Sequence record: OP856590.1
Direction: 5' to 3' (one strand)
Length of the DNA stretch: 64,000 nt
DNA from: Escherichia phage Ec_MI-02
Shown here: one piece after another, positions 4,347 to 57,976 of the stretch
Position numbering within the stretch: the stretch's first letter is position 1
Layout of the letters: each line of letters starts with the position of its first letter
Position numbers and translations under genes: made by a program
The notes under the pieces: generated by a model
Told to the model about the DNA's origin: nothing
The model's input: only the letters and a program-made list of their open reading frames with translations
The model's database searches: none

Positions 4347-4605
4347 ATTTAAAACGGATAGTCGAATCCTTGAAGAATAGACCAGAACATACGGTTCCTT
4401 CTACTTTCTGCCCGGTAGGTCCAATAGCACGAAATCCAGTATGTTGGAAGTCATTTTCAGAGCAACCGAACCAGTTATATCCAGTGATTTCAATATTAGT
4501 AAAACCGCTTGAAGACAAAACTTTGGTTGCATTATCAGCATCAGTACATCCTACTAAAGATACTGCTAATACTAATGCCGCGATAGAACGATTAACATAT
4601 TTCAT
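4345..4605 (-). CDS. small lipoprotein-like protein (86 aa)
   Basis: track start is TTG; ATG at MKYVNRS; signal peptide with LVGC lipobox-like motif. Confidence 0.45.
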   Translation of the reverse strand: MKYVNRSIAALVLAVSLVGCTDADNATKVLSSSGFTNIEITGYNWFGCSENDFQHTGFRAIGPTGQKVEGTVCSGLFFKDSTIRFK

Positions 4606-4609
4606 AATT

Positions 4610-4981
4610 TCACTCAAATTTAATGGCTTGAAGGAGACTAATAATTCTCAAGCGGCTTCTTTCATCTTTAACTGTAAAAGAAAGAGGGTCGCCAGATTTC
4701 ATAGTGATAGTGCATTCAAAATCAAAATCTTCAGGAACTTCTTCGAAGAAGTCAAATTCTTCGTCATAAATTAGAACATTACTCTGAAAACTGTGAAGAA
4801 TTTTTCCATCATTTCCAGATGCTGTACTAATCATTGTAACATTATGGCCTTTCATATCTTCAACGATAAATTCGCTTGTAGATATTACGGCATTAATAGA
4901 ACCATTCCTATAAATAGAAGAAAGCAGATATTTCTTTTCTTCACCTTCGCGAACACGATATTTCTTACCGATTTTAAACAT
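4610..4981 (-). CDS. hypothetical protein (123 aa)
   Basis: ORF; track start is GTG, ATG two codons later. Confidence 0.5.
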   Translation of the reverse strand: MFKIGKKYRVREGEEKKYLLSSIYRNGSINAVISTSEFIVEDMKGHNVTMISTASGNDGKILHSFQSNVLIYDEEFDFFEEVPEDFDFECTITMKSGDPLSFTVKDERSRLRIISLLQAIKFE

Positions 4982-4983
4982 AA

Positions 4984-5160
4984 TCACCCTTTAAGTAAGT
5001 CGTAAAAACCACCATTCACATGCTTAGGAGCAGAAGGCCGACGAGTAGACAGACGATGACATTTAGGGCAAACATCATTTTCTCGTTCAGAAATCTTTTT
5101 AATTTTTTCATATTCATGCCCGCAATCTTCGGATTGGCATTTATAATCATACATTGGCAT
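4984..5160 (-). CDS. small zinc-ribbon protein (58 aa)
   Basis: not in track (<60 aa); ATG MPMYDYKCQSEDCGHEYE...CPKC, two CxxC pairs; fills gap between neighbours. Confidence 0.4.
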   Translation of the reverse strand: MPMYDYKCQSEDCGHEYEKIKKISERENDVCPKCHRLSTRRPSAPKHVNGGFYDLLKG

Positions 5161-5162
5161 AA

Positions 5163-5582
5163 TTATTCCTTAAAGTGTGCTTTCAACATCTGATACAAGG
5201 ACCATGCCTGTTCATTATTTTCAATAGTAACTTTCATGACAGGAAATGCTGTGAAATCTTCTATTTGTTCTTGCTCTTCCTGCTCTTGCTCTTCAGCTGC
5301 CTGATATGGATTTTCAACTTCATCAAAGAACTCAGCTTCGTTAGTAGAAAGCCAGATAAAGTTTTCGTCAAGGATATCGCCATGTTTTGCATATCCAATT
5401 GTGCCAGTAGATGACATAATTTTAGTAGGACGCCCAAGATAATCAGCATCTAAAATTTTAAAAGGTTCCATGCCTAAACGTCGTGCATAGATTCCGTTAT
5501 CAGTATGGTCTTTAATAAAATTTTCTTGAGCTTGTTTATTTTTAAATTGATACCATTTATTAACTTCAAATCTAATAGCCAT
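5163..5582 (-). CDS. hypothetical acidic protein (139 aa), goF-position
   Basis: ATG start; TAATG overlap with downstream gene; position matches T4 goF but identity not verified. Confidence 0.5.
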
Positions 5583-5797
5583 TAATAAATTTCCTTCCAG
5601 TAAGTTGTACCGTCTTCAGTGATTTCACGGAATACACCGTAAATTGGTTGTTTATCACCAACCTTTTCATACACATAAACCGAAGTCAAGTGAGTAAACT
5701 TAACGGTATGTTCCTTTTGAACTACTACCAAATCTGGATCGAATAATACATCTTCAAATTCATCATTAGTGCAATTCTGAACAATTTTACGTTTCAT
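5582..5797 (-). CDS. hypothetical protein (71 aa), cef-position
   Basis: ATG start; size and position as T4 cef; identity unverified. Confidence 0.45.
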
Positions 5798-5810
5798 TAC
5801 AATTTCCTCA

Positions 5811-6080
5811 TTAATTGAACATTGGAGCGATGCGTTTCAGAAGAGTAGCAGCACCTTTGGCGAATTTTACATCATGAAAAACAGTTTCTTCTTCCGTTAC
5901 AACACGAGCTTTAATGTTTTCACAATCCCAATTTTTACGAACAATCTTCAAAAGCTGCAGTAAATCTTTACATTCAGCAATATCGATAACACATCCACGA
6001 GAATCTTCCATTATCGCACGATAACCATAAGCCATACCATAATCGTTGAAAGATTGTTCGATGATAATTAAGTTTTCCAT
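5811..6080 (-). CDS. hypothetical protein (89 aa)
   Basis: track start TTG; ATG preceded by GGAGAA SD. Confidence 0.5.
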   Translation of the reverse strand: MENLIIIEQSFNDYGMAYGYRAIMEDSRGCVIDIAECKDLLQLLKIVRKNWDCENIKARVVTEEETVFHDVKFAKGAATLLKRIAPMFN

Positions 6081-6177
6081 TTTATTCTCCAAATTGTTTT
6101 CTGTATCAGTAGTTGATATTGATATAGTACCATAATCAACTACTGATGTATATAGTTTTATGAAAAAATTTTAAACT

Positions 6178-6675
6178 TTATGCATAGCGGGCTTTACTAT
6201 AGTGTTTAATCCAACTTTCAGGAATGACTTTGTATGTTCCTAAAAATACTGCGTTGTACAACTTAACGCCATCTTCTACCCACTGATCGGTAATGTATGC
6301 ACACATAGCGCGAGTACGATGTTTTTGAACAACCCCTTCCTCATCTTCAGTAAATTCGAATTCATAAGGAGCAACGAACTTAATAGCTTGACCGAGTTTC
6401 CACTTAAAGTCTACACCTACATGCGAAGTATCAATCGTTTCAATTCCTTTAGCAGGAACAGCTTTCAAAAACGCAGACTCAAGAAATTTAGCACGAACAT
6501 AACCAAACTGAGGTTTAGACTTTCCATCTTTAGGAATGATACGCACTTTTACTTCAGAATCTTCATCTTTAACACCATGTTTAAGCTGAATGCTTACAAT
6601 TTCAACCAATTTTCCTGCTGCTTTAGAGCGGGATTTATCAGATACACGAGCTAATTCACCAATATTAATAATCAT
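6178..6675 (-). CDS. hypothetical protein (165 aa), paralogue of 6752..7294
   Basis: ATG start; C-terminal YITDQWVEDGVKLYNAVF shared with neighbour. Confidence 0.6.
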   Translation of the reverse strand: MIINIGELARVSDKSRSKAAGKLVEIVSIQLKHGVKDEDSEVKVRIIPKDGKSKPQFGYVRAKFLESAFLKAVPAKGIETIDTSHVGVDFKWKLGQAIKFVAPYEFEFTEDEEGVVQKHRTRAMCAYITDQWVEDGVKLYNAVFLGTYKVIPESWIKHYSKARYA

Positions 6676-6751
6676 AGTTATCTCTCACTTGTTAAAAAGA
6701 TTTTATACTCCACAGGACCATTATACTCTGGTCCCAAGAGTTTGTAAACTA

Positions 6752-7294
6752 TTAATTCAAAATAGCTACCACTGCACTACGAGGTACTACGCTAAAATCA
6801 CCTGCATGAACAACGTTCAGAAGTTCAACACCATCTTCAATCCACTGGTCTGTTACCCAACCACAGACCGAAATAAATGGGGTCTTAATAGCTACAGCAC
6901 GAGTCAAAAGGTCAGTAGGATCGCATTCTTGAAAGAGGATGAACTCTGCTTCAAAGACTATAGTTTTAATTACTTCATCATTATCTAAGCGTTGTGCTCG
7001 AATCACGTAAGCTTTATTCTTATCATGCCAGTTACTTTTTGAAAAACTTTTAACCACAAACTCGCCTTCACCAAAAACACTAGTCAATGCTTTATAACCC
7101 AAACTTAGTTCAGTAGTTTTAATTTCAGTTTCAACCAGTTTGTAGATTTTACCAATTTCGATGGTCCGAGCAGTCATAAAAGTTTCCTTAATTTCTAATG
7201 GTTTAACAAGAGTACCGTACATGCTTGCTATATCCATATCAAGCAGCTTATATACAGGATTCGGTGTGCATTCAGGATTATAATTAAATTTCAT
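6752..7294 (-). CDS. hypothetical protein (180 aa), paralogue of 6178..6675
   Basis: ATG start; C-terminal WVTDQWIEDGVELLNVVH motif. Confidence 0.6.
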   Translation of the reverse strand: MKFNYNPECTPNPVYKLLDMDIASMYGTLVKPLEIKETFMTARTIEIGKIYKLVETEIKTTELSLGYKALTSVFGEGEFVVKSFSKSNWHDKNKAYVIRAQRLDNDEVIKTIVFEAEFILFQECDPTDLLTRAVAIKTPFISVCGWVTDQWIEDGVELLNVVHAGDFSVVPRSAVVAILN

Positions 7295-7296
7295 AA

Positions 7297-7797
7297 TTAT
7301 CTCATTTCAATAAAATCTACAAGTTCAGCATGGGATTTACGGAACATTACTTGGTGTCCGCCAATGATAACTTCATCTTCAGGAACTTCGTATACAGCAA
7401 GATAAAATCCTTTAGAAGATAATTCTTCACGTTCTTCTCGTGTGAACCATCTCATCATATCATATTCGCTAGCGAAAGCAAAATGATAAAGAGCTATAAA
7501 CCATCCTGGAATATGATATTCTACTCCAACATAATCTTTCTTGAACTTAGTATTAATTACCGTATTAGCGTTTTTAACTAATAGTTTATCTTCATGCGGT
7601 ACAGGAATTCTTTTATTATCATCACTATGATGCATAAAATTAGGTCTACTATAACCTACCCGTAATAGCCACTCTTCGCTCCATGAATCCATTATACTCC
7701 TGTATGGCGTAATTTGAACGCAAAGATTTCGACGTATTGTTATAGCATCTTCATAATTAAGAATACTAAAAGATGATTCAACACGATAAATTTTCAT
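7297..7797 (-). CDS. hypothetical protein (166 aa)
   Basis: track start TTG lies inside the upstream promoter; ATG at MKIYRVESS with GAGGA SD. Confidence 0.55.
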   Translation of the reverse strand: MKIYRVESSFSILNYEDAITIRRNLCVQITPYRSIMDSWSEEWLLRVGYSRPNFMHHSDDNKRIPVPHEDKLLVKNANTVINTKFKKDYVGVEYHIPGWFIALYHFAFASEYDMMRWFTREEREELSSKGFYLAVYEVPEDEVIIGGHQVMFRKSHAELVDFIEMR

Positions 7798-7822
7798 TTT
7801 ATTATCCTCAGTAGCTATGGTG

Positions 7823-7854
7823 TTATAATACCACAACTAACCGAGGAAGTAAAC
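7823..7854 (-). promoter_or_regulatory. T4 early-type promoter
   Basis: GTTTAC-N18-TATTAT upstream of 7297..7797. Confidence 0.5.
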
Positions 7855-7860
7855 AACTTT

Positions 7861-8544
7861 TTATCGTTTTGTTGGAAGAGACAGAGGATCGCACTCTTCC
7901 TCTGACGGAGCATCTTCAAGACCCATAGCATATCGCAAAGCATACTTCATCATCAGGATGTCTTTCGCACAGTCATGAATAGAATCATGTGCAACGAACC
8001 CGTCTAAAGTTCCCTTTGGAAGAGGACATGTGGTCATATCACGAACAAGCAGAAGTGCTTCAATTCTGGTACGAATATCACGCTGATTCCAGAATTTACA
8101 TGGTTCTAACTTAAATGTATCAAGCTCATTCTCGGAAACGCCGTTAAGACGTTGAATATCGCGAATGAGATCAACTAAAATAGGAAAATCAAACGACATT
8201 CCACGGCACCAGCCTTGAGATTTCCAAGGATCGATGTTATGTGCATTGATGTAATCATTAAATTTTGCAATACCATCGATAGTGCTTACATCTTCATCTG
8301 ATGGTGCAATATTTTTTCGAGCTTCAGGAGATTGGTTTTTCCACCATTCGATAGTGCTTTTAGTAAAAAGACGATGTCCTTTTTGGCTTTTTAAATCAAA
8401 TTTGATTTTAATGCCACGTGAAACTAATTCATCAAATGTTTCAACTACTTCTGGATTAGGGTCAAAGGCAATAACAGCCAAATCAATAACAGCTGCCTTT
8501 TCACCGCTTCCCATTGTTTCAAAATCTATAATAAAATCAAACAT
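7861..8544 (-). CDS. dexA: exonuclease A (DEDDh 3'-5' exonuclease, 227 aa)
   Basis: 227 aa as T4 DexA; N-terminal DFETMG exonuclease motif; position upstream of dda block. Confidence 0.85.
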   Translation of the reverse strand: MFDFIIDFETMGSGEKAAVIDLAVIAFDPNPEVVETFDELVSRGIKIKFDLKSQKGHRLFTKSTIEWWKNQSPEARKNIAPSDEDVSTIDGIAKFNDYINAHNIDPWKSQGWCRGMSFDFPILVDLIRDIQRLNGVSENELDTFKLEPCKFWNQRDIRTRIEALLLVRDMTTCPLPKGTLDGFVAHDSIHDCAKDILMMKYALRYAMGLEDAPSEEECDPLSLPTKR

Positions 8545-51489: not shown

Positions 51490-52458
51490 TTATTTCAAAA
51501 GAGTAACCTCAGCAATTTCTTCCCAACCGTTTTTGTCGGTCATAATAAAGTCAGCAAGATAAAGAGCAGTACGCAGTGAAACATTGCGTAAACGATTAAC
51601 ATTAACTTTCATCCATGATAATGCTTTATAAGTTTCTTCATCAGAAAGACCGCGCTTTTGCATCATGTCAGTTGAAAGAATAACATCTTCAACCCTGACC
51701 ATAATTTCTTCATTAGTGTGAACACCCAAATCTAAATAAACCGAGCGGGACACTAATGCTTGTAAATGTGGAGCAAGTTTAGTACCACGGTCTAATTCGC
51801 GGTCAATGTCAACGTTTGTGATAAAAACAATCGTTCCTTTAAATTCAAACTCACGCTCAATGCCTTTTTCTTCTAAGTAAGAAGACGCAGTGCTCCAGCA
51901 GACTTTACGGGTCTCTCCAGTGTCCAGAGCGGCTTTTAGAAGATTAAGAATGTCCATATCAGAGAAAACATCTACATCATCAATCAAAAGGACAGAATTC
52001 TCTTCACGATTATTCCAAAGCTGCTCATAAAGACCAATACCAGAGATTTTACCATTAATGCTTTTATATTCAATGTATCCAATATCATTTGCTTTATTTA
52101 AAGCTTTATCTAAAGAATACGTTTTACCAATACCTGCTGCGCCAGAGATAATTAATGAACGAATATTTCCGTTAATAATACCATTCGTCATCATTCCCAT
52201 AACATTAAATCTTTTATTAATGCGGGTTTTCATATCTTCATATGATTCTTTAACTTCTTCAACTTTTACACCATCATATGAAATATCTGATTTGTAAACC
52301 CAAACACCGCGACGTTTACCGTCAATTTCAACAAAAACTTTACCATCTCCTTGTGCATCTACCGGAGCATTATCTGGGAACCATTCGCCTAAGAGCTCAA
52401 AAGTTCCAGAGATTTCTTTACCGAAGTAGATACCCTTATTGATAGTTACAGTTTTCAT
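51490..52458 (-). CDS. P-loop AAA-type ATPase (322 aa)
   Basis: Walker A GAAGIGKT, Walker B VLLIDDVD; track start TTG trimmed to ATG. Confidence 0.7.
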   Translation of the reverse strand: MKTVTINKGIYFGKEISGTFELLGEWFPDNAPVDAQGDGKVFVEIDGKRRGVWVYKSDISYDGVKVEEVKESYEDMKTRINKRFNVMGMMTNGIINGNIRSLIISGAAGIGKTYSLDKALNKANDIGYIEYKSINGKISGIGLYEQLWNNREENSVLLIDDVDVFSDMDILNLLKAALDTGETRKVCWSTASSYLEEKGIEREFEFKGTIVFITNVDIDRELDRGTKLAPHLQALVSRSVYLDLGVHTNEEIMVRVEDVILSTDMMQKRGLSDEETYKALSWMKVNVNRLRNVSLRTALYLADFIMTDKNGWEEIAEVTLLK

Positions 52459-52491
52459 TTTATTCTCCAAATCCGTATCAGTTGATAGTTG

Positions 52492-52522
52492 TATAGTACC
52501 ATAAAGCTTTATGCTTGTAAAC
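52492..52522 (-). promoter_or_regulatory. T4 early-type promoter upstream of AAA ATPase gene
   Basis: GTTTAC-N19-TACTAT; repeated cassette. Confidence 0.45.
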
Positions 52523-52552
52523 CGTTTTGTGAAAAAATTTTGAAATAAAAAA

Positions 52553-52570
52553 GGGAGCCCGAAGGCTCCC
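52553..52570 (-). terminator. rho-independent terminator after NTase-like gene
   Basis: GGGAGCC-UUCG-GGCUCCC followed by UUUUUUAUUU. Confidence 0.7.
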
Positions 52571-52572
52571 TA

Positions 52573-53586
52573 TCATTTATAATAACTTCGATGGTTTTCA
52601 AGATAAACCCTCTCAAGGAAGTCATCCCAGAAACCCATGTCTACTTTTTGCTGCATACCGTTCTTAGAAGCTTCAATGGATGCTGCTTCTACTTGATCGA
52701 CCACATCTTCCAAAAACTCTTGAACAGTTTTAAATGGATGTTTACCCAACTTCACGTCGAGAATAAATGGAGCGTCTTGAAGTGGATAGACTAAGTCACC
52801 AGTTTTGTAAATTTCCAATAGTTGGAGTCCACCACGGCAAGCATGACTCAGAGCTTTCCAGTCAATGCCCTCATTCGCTTCAGCCTTACGAGCACGTTCG
52901 CCGTATTCAGCATCAAGTTTATTCAAAGACTGCTTAAGCTCAATAAGAGAAAGCGTTGTTTGATATTTACGACCCAACACAGTGTAGAACGTTTGTGGAC
53001 CTGTTTTCTCATGATTATGGAATACCCATTCACAGAATTCGTTCTCTGGAAGACGATGCTTAATATCTTCAACTTTAGTTCGACGCTGCTTAATGGAACC
53101 GTCTTCTTGGTAATCAACCCATTGCTCAGGGATTTGATTAACTACTTTCAACACATCACGTAATGCGGCCAAACGAGAACCCTTAACACCGTATTTAGAA
53201 GCTTGCTTGCGAACATATCCTAAGTAGGATTTCATGTTGGTCGTATAAAAACGAGAACGATTGTCTTGAATAAACTTCCATACATCAGGCAAATCAGATT
53301 TAACTACTAGTTCCGGTGGAGTGTGGAGCATATCCAATGCTACAGTTTCACCATCTGCTGCTAATTTAAAGAAATACTTAAGACTGTATAGTTCATGGTC
53401 AATATCATCTTTAGTGTTTTTAGATGATGTGTTGTTAGTGTTTTTACTCATATGCTCTTTAACATTTCCGATAAGAATATCGCGAGCACGAGGAACAAAG
53501 ATTTCTTTAAAATCTACATCAGATTCTGGAGTAGAAGTTCCATAAAGATGACTACCAAAATAGCTTTTCATTACTGTTTTCATCAT
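52573..53586 (-). CDS. Pol-beta superfamily nucleotidyltransferase-like protein (337 aa)
   Basis: N-terminal FGSHLYGTSTPESDVDF (hG[GS]x9-13 DhD) plus downstream DDIDHE acidic motif. Confidence 0.55.
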   Translation of the reverse strand: MMKTVMKSYFGSHLYGTSTPESDVDFKEIFVPRARDILIGNVKEHMSKNTNNTSSKNTKDDIDHELYSLKYFFKLAADGETVALDMLHTPPELVVKSDLPDVWKFIQDNRSRFYTTNMKSYLGYVRKQASKYGVKGSRLAALRDVLKVVNQIPEQWVDYQEDGSIKQRRTKVEDIKHRLPENEFCEWVFHNHEKTGPQTFYTVLGRKYQTTLSLIELKQSLNKLDAEYGERARKAEANEGIDWKALSHACRGGLQLLEIYKTGDLVYPLQDAPFILDVKLGKHPFKTVQEFLEDVVDQVEAASIEASKNGMQQKVDMGFWDDFLERVYLENHRSYYK

Positions 53587-54044
53587 TCAGCCTTATATTC
53601 AATAACAGGACATACTTTAGCTTTACGCGCTTTTAAAAATTCGACGATAATAGATTTCTTGGGTTGAATAGGAGGTAAACCTTTATACGCCCTATCAATA
53701 TTTTCTACATGTAAAGCATAATCCTTTTTCCATTTATAATCTTTATATTTTTCATGTAGTTGTGCAGGAATAACAAATGAACCAATAATAAGTAAAACAA
53801 GCAAAATGGCAAGTATAAATGCTGATGGAATAAGAGTCCATAAACTACCAAAAATAAGCCATTTCTGTATGATTTCTGCACAGATAATAGTTAGACCTGC
53901 GAGTATAGTACATCCGAAAAAAGAAACGAAAAATGTAGGGATAACAATAGACCAAAAATATGCACAAAGTGTCTTAGGTCGTTTCCATTCGTCGTTAAAC
54001 ATTTTGAATAATTTATAATGCCAAGAGTTTTCATTAATAATCAT
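53583..54044 (-). CDS. membrane protein (153 aa)
   Basis: two long hydrophobic helices; ATGA-coupled to the NTase-like gene. Confidence 0.55.
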   Translation of the reverse strand: MIINENSWHYKLFKMFNDEWKRPKTLCAYFWSIVIPTFFVSFFGCTILAGLTIICAEIIQKWLIFGSLWTLIPSAFILAILLVLLIIGSFVIPAQLHEKYKDYKWKKDYALHVENIDRAYKGLPPIQPKKSIIVEFLKARKAKVCPVIEYKAE

Positions 54045-54046
54045 AA

Positions 54047-54568
54047 TTATCCTTTCATTGAAGGTGTAACAGTTGTTAAATACTTAATCATAGCTTCAGC
54101 TTCTGATTTTGATAATGAAATTTCTCCATTATTTTGACGAATAGAAATAAAATCCGGATGACGGTCACCACCAGCTTTTAAAACACACATATAAGTATCA
54201 GTTTCATCTTCAATATTTGAAATGATTGAAGCAGTTCCACATGAATGTGGTTTTTGATAAACTAATACAGCTTTTCTTCCACCGTTTGACTGTTCATAAA
54301 CTTTTAATACATCAAACAAATCACTTCTTTTATCAATAGCTAAGATGTTGTTTTCATCTTCAATATTAAATCCTTCGGATACTTCATAAAGTGTCACCCA
54401 TAAATCACCTATATCGATAGTAGCATTTCCTTTTCCACGACTTTCAAGAATGTGACAAATTTTCTTAATTTCATCATAACTCATTTTAATAATATCATCT
54501 CCTTGACTAAGGAAGATGTCATTTTTAAATTCAACGCGAATTAAACCACTTCCACTTGAAATAAACAT
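54047..54568 (-). CDS. hypothetical protein (173 aa), paralogue of 54575..55108
   Basis: shared GFNIE and C-terminal KYLTTVTPSM motifs. Confidence 0.55.
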   Translation of the reverse strand: MFISSGSGLIRVEFKNDIFLSQGDDIIKMSYDEIKKICHILESRGKGNATIDIGDLWVTLYEVSEGFNIEDENNILAIDKRSDLFDVLKVYEQSNGGRKAVLVYQKPHSCGTASIISNIEDETDTYMCVLKAGGDRHPDFISIRQNNGEISLSKSEAEAMIKYLTTVTPSMKG

Positions 54569-54574
54569 ATTTCC

Positions 54575-55108
54575 TCACTTTGAAATCATAGTTGGAATGA
54601 CAGAATCAAGATAAGTCTTTAGCGCAATAGCTTCGTCTTTGGTAAATGTGACAATATGCGATCGAAAATCATCAATTTGACGAATAGTTAAGACATCTCC
54701 ATCTTCATAACATTTTGATACGTTTAAAACAGTTTCATCATTCTGATTGCAAGCGTTAGTAATAATAGCATTGCAATTTTTAAACCATTTTAAACTATGT
54801 TTTCTTTCATTAGAATAATAAAAATATTTAATCTTATCTATAAAACTGTCCCAATGAATAACTGATAGGCATATTGACTCGCTTTCAATATTAAATCCTG
54901 GGCATGAAGAATAAAAATGAATTTTATGCTCATCATTAATGCTTACAATTTTATCAGTATAAGGATTTTCAATTTGGGTTAAATGAATGATTTCACTAGG
55001 CGTAAAATACATCATATCATCTTCTTGCGTCAAACGATACATATTATTTACTTTTTCTATAGCTAATTCACCAAAAAGTGAACTAACTTCTAGTACTAAT
55101 CGTTTCAT
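54575..55108 (-). CDS. hypothetical protein (177 aa), paralogue of 54047..54568
   Basis: second ATG chosen (AAAGGA SD); C-terminal KTYLDSVIPTM. Confidence 0.55.
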   Translation of the reverse strand: MKRLVLEVSSLFGELAIEKVNNMYRLTQEDDMMYFTPSEIIHLTQIENPYTDKIVSINDEHKIHFYSSCPGFNIESESICLSVIHWDSFIDKIKYFYYSNERKHSLKWFKNCNAIITNACNQNDETVLNVSKCYEDGDVLTIRQIDDFRSHIVTFTKDEAIALKTYLDSVIPTMISK

Positions 55109-55109
55109 A

Positions 55110-55388
55110 TTAATCCTTTTTATTGGCATGAATTTGTTTTAAAATTTTAGAGTATTCCTTTGTATCAGATTTACGCACAATCGATACACTATAAGGCATA
55201 CTATCGGTGTCTTTTATAAAACGTTCCAAATGACACTCTAACAAAATTTCTGGGTTATAAATCGTGTACATCAAATTACCTGTTGCTCCACGATATTGAC
55301 AGATTTCTACTGATTGAGCGTCATTCCACAATTTTGTTAAGACTAAATCACCTACTTCTAATTTCGGAAAGCTCACATTATTCACCAA
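55110..55388 (-). CDS. hypothetical protein (92 aa)
   Basis: ORF; start codon uncertain (TTG/GTG). Confidence 0.4.
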   Translation of the reverse strand: MVNNVSFPKLEVGDLVLTKLWNDAQSVEICQYRGATGNLMYTIYNPEILLECHLERFIKDTDSMPYSVSIVRKSDTKEYSKILKQIHANKKD

Positions 55389-55569
55389 TTAAAGTTTCAA
55401 TTAATTCTCTTAACTTAAAAGCTTGTTCACTTGTCATTACATACTCCTTTGAATAATATCAATAATATTGTTCACCAGATTATAAGTAAACATTGGGTAA
55501 TTATATTGAATCATCACATACACAACAAACAAAACTTTCATTCTCTTCTCCTTGGCAGTTGACAAGATT

Positions 55570-55599
55570 ACTATATCATAACCTTGCCAACTTGTAAAC
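55570..55599 (-). promoter_or_regulatory. T4 early-type promoter
   Basis: GTTTAC-N18-TGATATAGT. Confidence 0.5.
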
Positions 55600-57394: not shown

Positions 57395-57976
57395 CTAACC
57401 GAGCTTTTTAGTTAATTCATTCCAGTGTTTTCTACACAAAGAAACATAAATTTCATCACCAATACAGATTTGATTACCTTCTTTAACTGGTGTTCCATCT
57501 TCCATTAATCGAGCTGTCATAATCGCTTTTTTACCACAATGACAAACTGCTTTTAGTTCAATAAGTTTATCTGCAATCGCCAAAAGTTCTTTAGAACCTT
57601 CAAATAATTTTCCAGCGAAATCAGTCCTTAGACCATAAGCCATAACAGGAACATTATATGTATCAACAATTCGGCTTAATTGATGCACCTGTTCAGTTTT
57701 TAAAAACTGGGCTTCATCTACAAATACACAATGAATATCTTTTTGTGCTTCTGCCCATTTATAGAACTCAAAAATATCCATATCATCCGTAATAATATTC
57801 GCTTCCTGTTTAATTCCAATGCGAGAAACGACTTCACAGACAGAATCGCGAGTATCAATAGCAGGCTTAAGAACTAATACACCCATTCCGCGTTCTTTAT
57901 AATTGTGTGCAGCAGTCAAAAGAGAAGCAGATTTTCCAGCATTCATTGCTGCATAAGTAAAAATTAAACTCGCCAT
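57395..57976 (-). CDS. tk: thymidine kinase (193 aa)
   Basis: P-loop NAGKSASLL; C-terminal zinc motif CHCGKK...C..H; 193 aa. Confidence 0.9.
   Translation of the reverse strand: MASLIFTYAAMNAGKSASLLTAAHNYKERGMGVLVLKPAIDTRDSVCEVVSRIGIKQEANIITDDMDIFEFYKWAEAQKDIHCVFVDEAQFLKTEQVHQLSRIVDTYNVPVMAYGLRTDFAGKLFEGSKELLAIADKLIELKAVCHCGKKAIMTARLMEDGTPVKEGNQICIGDEIYVSLCRKHWNELTKKLG

Follow-up and report, generated by a model that had tools for sequence, protein, structure and literature searches.

A 337-aa nucleotidyltransferase (NTase) encoded on the minus strand of Escherichia phage Ec_MI-02, at positions 52573..53586 of the 64,000-nucleotide stretch of its genome analysed here (sequence record OP856590.1; hereafter the window), is identified by sequence comparison as the orthologue of phage T4 NrdC.11 (T4p095, NP_049709), with 98.2% identity over the full length. 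The T4 protein is annotated as 'nucleotidyltransferase', and profile matches assign the NTase to the RlaP family (PF10127, COG3541). Since NrdC.11 lies in a family whose assayed members extend broken RNA ends by one or two nucleotides, it most likely helps to repair tRNAs cut by defence nucleases. More precisely, NrdC.11 is probably an RlaP-type RNA 3'-end nucleotidyltransferase that performs a 'fill' step between the T4 enzymes Pnkp and Rnl1, by which nucleotides excised by RloC-type nucleases would be restored. The original prediction, made from the letters of the window, could not place the protein and suggested an anti-defence or nucleotide-signal enzyme. The anti-defence half of that suggestion is plausible, while the signalling half lost its ground, no match to CD-NTases or CBASS having been obtained. 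The protein can also be placed: the gene and its family assignment were already in the literature, and what was flagged is a catalogued gene of a family already described rather than a novel signalling enzyme. As early as 2006 a match of NrdC.11 orthologues to the COG3541 nucleotidyltransferases was recorded (PMC1524935), and a preprint of December 2025, in which T4 NrdC.11 is a named member of RlaP/PF10127, locates it in cluster 5 of the sequence similarity network (SSN) of that family (PMC12776372). The name RlaP was coined by Burroughs & Aravind in 2016, as that work is cited in passages of PMC12776372, PMC7824862 and PMC6514570.

The match of the protein to Pfam PF10127, RlaP ('RNA repair pathway DNA polymerase beta family'), extends over residues 7-135 (E = 1e-10; 42.2 bits against a cutoff of 23), and PHROG 388 'nucleotidyltransferase' is matched at E = 4e-136. 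An exhaustive HMMER search with the NTase gave 3240 cluster representatives at E <= 1e-3. The alignment used here, A1, holds 62 diverse representatives with 34-55% identity to the query, all of which match PF10127 (best E = 2.2e-19); the next family, NTP_transf_2, is matched by only four of them. Residues G11, S12, G16, S22, D23, D25, N57, D63, Y132, K244, H248, R251 and P268 are invariant in A1, and the Pol-beta catalytic signature, composed of a GS pair, a DxD motif and a third Asp, is thereby satisfied by G11, S12, D23, D25 and D63 in each of the 62 sequences. The predicted open reading frame (ORF) with its two motifs is present, its catalytic triad is intact and conserved, and the PF10127 match together with the invariance of those five residues places the motif beyond chance. 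The searches therefore lead to PF10127 and not to a non-catalytic family, and the GS…DxD residues on which the prediction depended are conserved in the homologues. The comparison with CD-NTase, minimal nucleotidyltransferase (MNT) and kanamycin nucleotidyltransferase (KNTase) families that had been suggested with it gave no family-level match to any of them, PF10127 being found instead. In the PDB, neither the single protein nor the 62-sequence profile retrieved a meaningful match by sequence. Scans of the NTase against NCBIfam and PADLOC gave none above threshold and no defence-model matches, and PF01743 (PolyA_pol head, class II CCA-adding enzyme / poly(A) polymerase) was matched neither by the query nor by the 62 homologues. 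The gene and the parts of its product are distributed as follows.

52573..53586, minus strand: nrdC.11 orthologue, RlaP-family (PF10127) Pol-beta nucleotidyltransferase; 337-aa ORF with FGSHLYGTSTPESDVDF and DDIDHE
53194..53586, minus strand: N-terminal NTase core, residues 1-131; G11 and S12, codons of D23 and D25 at 53520..53512, codon of D63 at 53400..53398
52864..53193, minus strand: insertion of ~110 residues (~132-241); end of the long helix, beta-rich module and helix 214-236 in the AlphaFold2 (AF2) model
52576..52863, minus strand: C-terminal helical domain, residues 242-337; invariant K244, H248 and R251 in the DWKALSHACR helix, terminal helix 317-336

The AF2 model of the NTase (pLDDT 94.1, pTM 0.82) begins with the alpha/beta NTase core, continues with a long helix (119-150) and a beta-rich module whose strands are located between residues 155 and 209, and ends with helices 214-236, 243-262 and 285-308 and the terminal helix 317-336. 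As far as descriptions can be compared, this layout of NTase core, helical C-terminal part and terminal helix is consistent with the crystal structure of PfRlaP, the enzyme of Pseudomonas fluorescens, where an N-terminal NTase domain precedes a helical one whose last helix packs back on it (PMC12776372). The full-length Pfam match ends at residue 135, and forms devoid of the insert align further, for which reason NrdC.11-type proteins are read, from their alignments, as an RlaP core plus an insertion of ~110 residues. A 232-aa homologue of Krischvirus phage MIZ3 has no counterpart of residues ~132-241 of NrdC.11 in the pairwise alignment (L005:6004-6702) and matches positions 24-198 of the 249 of the RlaP profile (E = 3.4e-14), and NrdC.11 artificially deleted of its insert matches positions 23-176, through the conserved DWKALSHACR helix. 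By itself the insert matched no Pfam family. It is present in 62 of the 62 A1 members, with a block occupancy of 0.9-1.0 except at the variable loop ~151-170, and no description of such an insertion in the RlaP core was found in the literature consulted on RlaP/NrdC.11. The insertion may contribute to the recognition of the substrate or RNA, and the insert-less MIZ3 form would be a useful comparator for its function. In MIZ3, an Escherichia phage, that homologue occupies another genomic position, near endolysin and regB-like genes.

The activity of the family has been described with PfRlaP and with PaRlaP of P. aeruginosa, which have in common with NrdC.11 the Pol-beta core GS…DxD…D and, as far as described, a helical C-terminal domain that contains a conserved basic helix. 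Both enzymes add 1-2 nucleoside monophosphates to RNA 3'-OH ends, prefer Mn2+, and are inactive on DNA, on protein (E. coli proteins included) and on 3'-phosphate ends (PMC12776372). They favour the broken-anticodon end of a tRNA mimic over its acceptor end, and improve aminoacylation when a tRNA lacking one nucleotide has been repaired (PMC12776372). This end chemistry is compatible with a 5'-phosphate ligase, and in the proposal of the preprint's authors RlaP would be the antidote to 'smart' ribotoxins that excise nucleotides, RloC for example (PMC12776372). A survey of jumbo phages found that the distribution of RlaP mirrors that of RNA ligases (PMC7824862). T4 itself encodes Pnkp (pseT) and Rnl1 (rnlA), which are annotated as repairing tRNA in prr hosts. 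We infer that NrdC.11 shares the activity of the assayed RlaPs, with tRNA halves as its probable substrate. The process would start with host RloC-type anticodon nucleases, which would cut the tRNA and excise a nucleotide; T4 Pnkp would heal the ends, giving a 3'-OH; NrdC.11, its D23, D25 and D63 carboxylates presumably binding two divalent metal ions, probably Mn2+, would put back the missing nucleotide on the 5' half; and Rnl1, a 5'-phosphate/3'-OH ligase, would seal the break. Acting as the fill step of tRNA repair, NrdC.11 would be a counter-defence enzyme, and an RNA-repair counter-defence role for the T4 protein appears likely from the whole of the analysis. The orthology, the family membership, the conservation of the catalytic residues, the domain layout and the RNA-repair neighbours in related viruses were established here; the biochemistry of RlaP, from the two Pseudomonas enzymes only, and the chemistry of RloC and of Pnkp/Rnl1 are taken from the literature.

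Neighbours related to RNA repair were found in divergent viruses. ORFs were called in 86 loci, consisting of 80 IMG/VR contigs, annotated phage records and the window, which were clustered into 39 NTase lineages at 70% identity; RNA-repair genes were sought by searches seeded with T4 Pnkp and Rnl1 and confirmed with Pfam. An RNA-end-processing gene lies within ±8 kb of the NTase in 10 of the 39 lineages, seven of which have an RNA ligase (RtcB, Rnl1 or Rnl2), these counts being given without a background rate and hence as support, not as a statistical test. Among the 238 neighbour proteins located within ±5 genes in the 38 non-T4 lineages, the Pfam counts were HD 6, DNMK 6, RtcB 3, AAA_33 P-loop kinase 3, RNA_lig_T4_1 1, NAMPT 7 and NUDIX 7. 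The RNA-repair neighbourhoods belong to NrdC.11-like, insert-bearing viral homologues. In loci L064-L066 the same strand carries, in this order, a fusion of HD phosphoesterase and AAA_33 P-loop kinase (4530-5672 in L064), a 112-aa ORF, an Rnl1-type ligase (6020-7144) and the NTase (7159-8088). The L064 cassette (4530-8088), found in an uncultured virus (IMG/VR contig 3300042343_001539), is a candidate for a complete heal–seal–fill RNA repair operon. The NTase is accompanied by HD (+1) and RtcB (+4) in L081, by an ATP-dependent ligase (+1) and RtcB (+4) in L075, and by HD (+3), an Rnl2-like ligase (+4) and a P-loop kinase (+7) in L067. A P-loop kinase (-1) overlaps the start of the NTase in L048, where Rnl1 is located ~3 kb upstream; RtcB is at +5 on the opposite strand in L039, and HD is at +1 in L056 and L076. 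In Barba19A (L003) a CCA-adding enzyme and a hydrolase are followed by the NTase, which places the CCA enzyme two genes off. A contig search with the single NTase protein gave one phage-like contig of a metagenome-assembled genome, and the contig encoding P0264, of 3.6 kb, had no informative neighbours.

The evidence of family and catalysis applies equally to an RNA 3'-end nucleotidyltransferase with another role, either in the repair or maintenance of the tRNA 3'-CCA or in the tailing of host or phage RNAs for decay or stabilisation during takeover, a reading that we consider unlikely but the most serious of the rivals. The Barba19A locus would fit a CCA role, as would the HD neighbours, which resemble the HD domain of CCA enzymes; however, RNA ligases and Pnkp-like kinases recur as neighbours, and these are needed for internal breaks, not for the chemistry of 3' tails. 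Maturation of T4 tRNAs depends on the host CCA-adding enzyme, as known from classical T4 genetics, and this counts against a CCA activity of the phage. E. coli RNAs of the size of rRNA and of full-length tRNA were labelled by the Pseudomonas RlaPs along with fragments, with little NTP specificity, which speaks for this reading, but their preference for the broken-anticodon end over the acceptor end does not favour CCA addition (PMC12776372).

NAD+ salvage genes (NAMPT, bifunctional NMNAT-Nudix) were also seen within 5 genes of the NTase, in 7 of the 38 divergent lineages. They are found at L039:9736-13541, where the order is NTase, NAMPT, PRPP-synthetase-like gene and RtcB, and also in L012, L017, L034, L037, L043, L082 and L084 near position 8000. 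Such neighbours more likely reflect co-located accessory or counter-defence gene islands than a functional link.

Several points weigh against NrdC.11 being the fill enzyme of tRNA repair. The RlaP assays cover PfRlaP and PaRlaP only, which belong to SSN cluster 1a, separate from the cluster 5 of NrdC.11. The separate cluster, together with the ~110-residue insertion that interrupts the Pfam alignment and is presumably absent in the assayed enzymes, means that substrate and product could differ. The AF2 model and the PfRlaP structure were compared by description, and the model has the insert in addition. In T4-like phages nrdC.11 is outside any rtcB or RNA-ligase operon; it is adjacent to pseT or rnlA neither in T4 nor in the window, the distance in the T4 genome being ~78-82 kb. 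Twenty-nine of the 39 lineages have no RNA-repair neighbour within ±8 kb, a proportion for which no background rate was computed. Finally, an untemplated addition cannot ensure that the correct nucleotide is restored, and it is anticipated that only a minority of the tRNA will be functional after repair (PMC12776372).

Another rival is nucleotidylation of a protein or small molecule, as done by MntA antitoxins (AMPylation of HEPN RNase toxins) or by the KNTase, ANT and Lnu enzymes; a host HEPN-type nuclease might, for instance, be inactivated directly. The similarities to such enzymes are at the level of the superfamily only (TM <= 0.3, 8-15% identity), and we regard this reading as improbable. 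With 13.2 bits the protein stays below the cutoff of 60 set for the NCBIfam MntA model, its 337 aa compare with the ~100-140 aa of MntA, and no HEPN gene is adjacent. KNTase/ANT(4') and the JCSG protein 3c18 show 8-10% identity and TM <= 0.3 and share no Pfam family with NrdC.11, no KNTase or ANT family of Pfam being matched; KNTase/ANT(4'), unlike the role proposed for NrdC.11, act on small-molecule substrates. Moreover, the assayed RlaPs did not act on E. coli proteins (PMC12776372), and the neighbours are RNA-repair genes, not toxins.

The segment of the window that contains the gene is that of a T4-like (Tequatrovirus) genome, with 98.8% identity over 4.6 kb to Shigella phage pSs-1. Every gene of the stretch is on the minus strand, including tk at 57395..57976, then rI.1, rI and rI.-1. 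Around nrdC.11 the features, in the direction of transcription, are the following.

55598..55570, minus strand: sigma-70 / T4-early-type promoter-like site; TTTACA-17-TATAGT with upstream TG, 10/12 consensus matches
55437..55541, minus strand: MobD.2 orthologue, 34 aa, first ORF after the promoter-like site; 91% identity to T4 MobD.2
55110..55376, minus strand: Phage_tudor (PF24144) protein, 88 aa; Pfam E = 1.8e-39
54575..55108, minus strand: MobD.1 orthologue, 177 aa, y05I family; Pfam T4_y05I_N and T4_y05I_C, 84% identity to T4 MobD.1
54047..54568, minus strand: y05I-family protein, 173 aa, MobD.1 paralogue with no T4 counterpart; Pfam T4_y05I_N and T4_y05I_C
53583..54044, minus strand: membrane protein, 153 aa, two-segment, translationally coupled (ATGA) to nrdC.11; PHROG 944 'membrane protein'
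52571..52552, minus strand: intrinsic-terminator-like hairpin; AGGGAGCC-TTCG-GGCTCCCT then the TTTTTATTT T-run
51490..52470, minus strand: nrdC.10 orthologue, AAA-like P-loop protein, 326 aa, next unit; weak AAA-family Pfam hits, 99% identity to T4 NrdC.10

The terminator hairpin, with an 8-bp stem containing six G-C pairs and a TTCG loop, is positioned directly past the nrdC.11 stop codon. Scanning of the minus strand from 56431 to 52571 revealed no terminator-like site other than that at 52571..52552, and a single transcription unit is on that account a reasonable reading. The unit had been predicted to run from an early promoter to a strong terminator; the terminator was seen, and the promoter at 55598..55570 is a consensus match only, in a region that has 33 such matches against 25 ± 5 by chance. 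The coupling to the membrane gene was read directly in the DNA, where the 153-aa ORF ends in a TGA (53585..53583) that shares bases with the first ATG of nrdC.11 (53586..53584), forming ATGA. Starting at that ATG the NTase has 337 aa, and at the second ATG, the one used in the T4 annotation, 336 aa. The 153-aa protein had been described as a two-helix membrane protein and in fact presents two long hydrophobic segments, at ~25-60 and ~62-98 (Kyte-Doolittle mean over 19 residues >1.6, peaking at 3.0), and a C-terminal tail that is basic. As had been proposed, the two proteins of 173 and 177 aa are paralogous (29% identity, E = 2e-11, the same two Pfam families); the Pfam label for the y05I family is 'putative transcription factor', and the 173-aa protein has just 26% identity to T4 MobD.1. 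For the tudor gene, a 92-aa ORF reaches 55388, but its start is more likely the GTG at 55376, giving 88 aa, in accordance with the annotation of phage pSs-1. A putative 19-codon ORF, MTSEQAFKLRELIETLIGE, lies at ~55378..55437 on the minus strand, in the gap that separates the mobD.2 orthologue from the tudor gene, and its stop overlaps the region of the tudor GTG start. Directly after the nrdC.11 terminator a second T4-early-type promoter-like site is found at 52521..52493 on the minus strand (TTTACA-17-TACTAT, with upstream TG), which suggests that nrdC.10 opens a separate transcription unit.

In T4 the same nrdC.10 gene lies downstream of nrdC.11, and the site of the latter, between nrdC.10 and the mobD.1/mobD.2 block, is also the same. 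The upstream side differs: T4 has the HNH homing endonuclease gene mobD directly upstream of nrdC.11, where the window has the genes of the membrane protein and of the second y05I paralogue, and the window, unlike T4, has the tudor-domain gene between mobD.1 and mobD.2. By tblastn against the T4 nrdD-vs.1 region (44-62 kb, 18 kb), the membrane protein, the 173-aa paralogue and the 88-aa tudor protein had no counterpart. According to a review of mobile elements, mobD inserted between nrdC.11 and mobD.1 (PMC2988022). With mobD in T4 where the membrane and 173-aa genes lie here, the locus of the window would be either the allele free of mobD or another cassette. Phage records with the NTase number 1518, T4-like phages of Klebsiella, Aeromonas, Acinetobacter and Vibrio among them, against 931 for the 153-aa membrane protein. 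The membrane-protein cluster adjoins the NTase in only 2 of the 39 lineages, and the nrdC.10 cluster likewise in only 2 of the 39, from which the 'operon' is understood as a mosaic of exchangeable accessory genes round a conserved enzyme gene. The predicted operon partnership thus stands as a probable transcription unit and fails as a conserved association: the membrane, y05I and tudor genes would be on the same transcript as nrdC.11, yet they are accessory genes that can be exchanged and do not belong to an enzyme system. As functional subunits those genes are ruled out by their absence from the corresponding T4 region, and nrdC.10, the AAA-like gene, is ruled out as an obligate partner by its own promoter-like site past the terminator and by its two lineages as a neighbour. 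T4 tolerates the laboratory deletion of the stretch from nrdC.11 to mobD.3 (PMC9825161), which fits the expectation for a counter-defence gene needed only conditionally.

The composition of the locus also bears on nucleotide or oligonucleotide signalling, be it of the CD-NTase type, of the type of Hailong HalB with the 153-aa membrane protein as partner, or by an anti-Hailong decoy synthase; we give this very little credence. In Hailong, HalB makes an oligo-dA that gates the HalA membrane channel, and a membrane gene coupled to an NTase gene recalls that arrangement. HalB (PDB 9dbh / 9dbj), however, is a 217-aa homotetramer, a protein-primed poly-dA synthase locked to HalA; its resemblance to NrdC.11 is at fold level only, with 15% identity, and the 62-sequence profile finds no HalB in PDB at E <= 10. 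The 153-aa membrane protein has no PDB sequence relative. Whereas HalB is obligately paired with HalA, the membrane neighbour is dispensable in T4, which keeps a 98%-identical NTase with no membrane gene anywhere in the 18-kb region, and the record and lineage counts given above separate the two genes further. With the CD-NTases (cGAS-DncV-like, CBASS) NrdC.11 has in common only the superfamily-wide Pol-beta catalytic motif; there is no effector or Cap gene context at nrdC.11, there were no PADLOC/CBASS hits, and no cGAS or CD-NTase structure was among the fold matches listed. The most novel form of this reading, likewise very improbable, would be that the insert-bearing NrdC.11 clade is no generic RlaP and constitutes a HalB-like oligonucleotide synthase whose product acts on a membrane channel, forming a phage-borne, Hailong-like exclusion module with the 153-aa protein or making a decoy oligonucleotide by which host Hailong-type channels would stay closed during infection.

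The records of this region contain several misleading entries. In pSs-1 (NC_025829), the closest annotated relative, nrdC.11 is split into coding sequences of 735 and 246 bp (L001:4174-5183), which points to a frameshift or a sequencing error in NC_025829, the copy of the window being intact. Orthologues of NrdC.11 are widely named 'thioredoxin' in public phage records, apparently after the nrdC gene name; MobD.1 and MobD.4 are called 'molybdopterin-guanine dinucleotide biosynthesis protein MobD', and the 153-aa membrane protein is labelled 'prohead core protein' in a T6 record.

RNA repair as a counter-defence of viruses has its founding example in the Pnkp/Rnl1 pathway of T4, and nucleotide-excising nucleases of the RloC type have been proposed to defeat it. 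Should NrdC.11 be the fill enzyme, the repair pathway of T4-like phages would have three steps, heal–fill–seal, and a model phage already available could be used to put the question of RloC to a direct test. More than 1,500 sequenced phages have the gene, under the widespread wrong label of 'thioredoxin', for which 'RlaP-family RNA nucleotidyltransferase NrdC.11' would be a better annotation. Moreover, the ~110-residue insertion marks a phage clade and offers a concrete target for work on structure and function.

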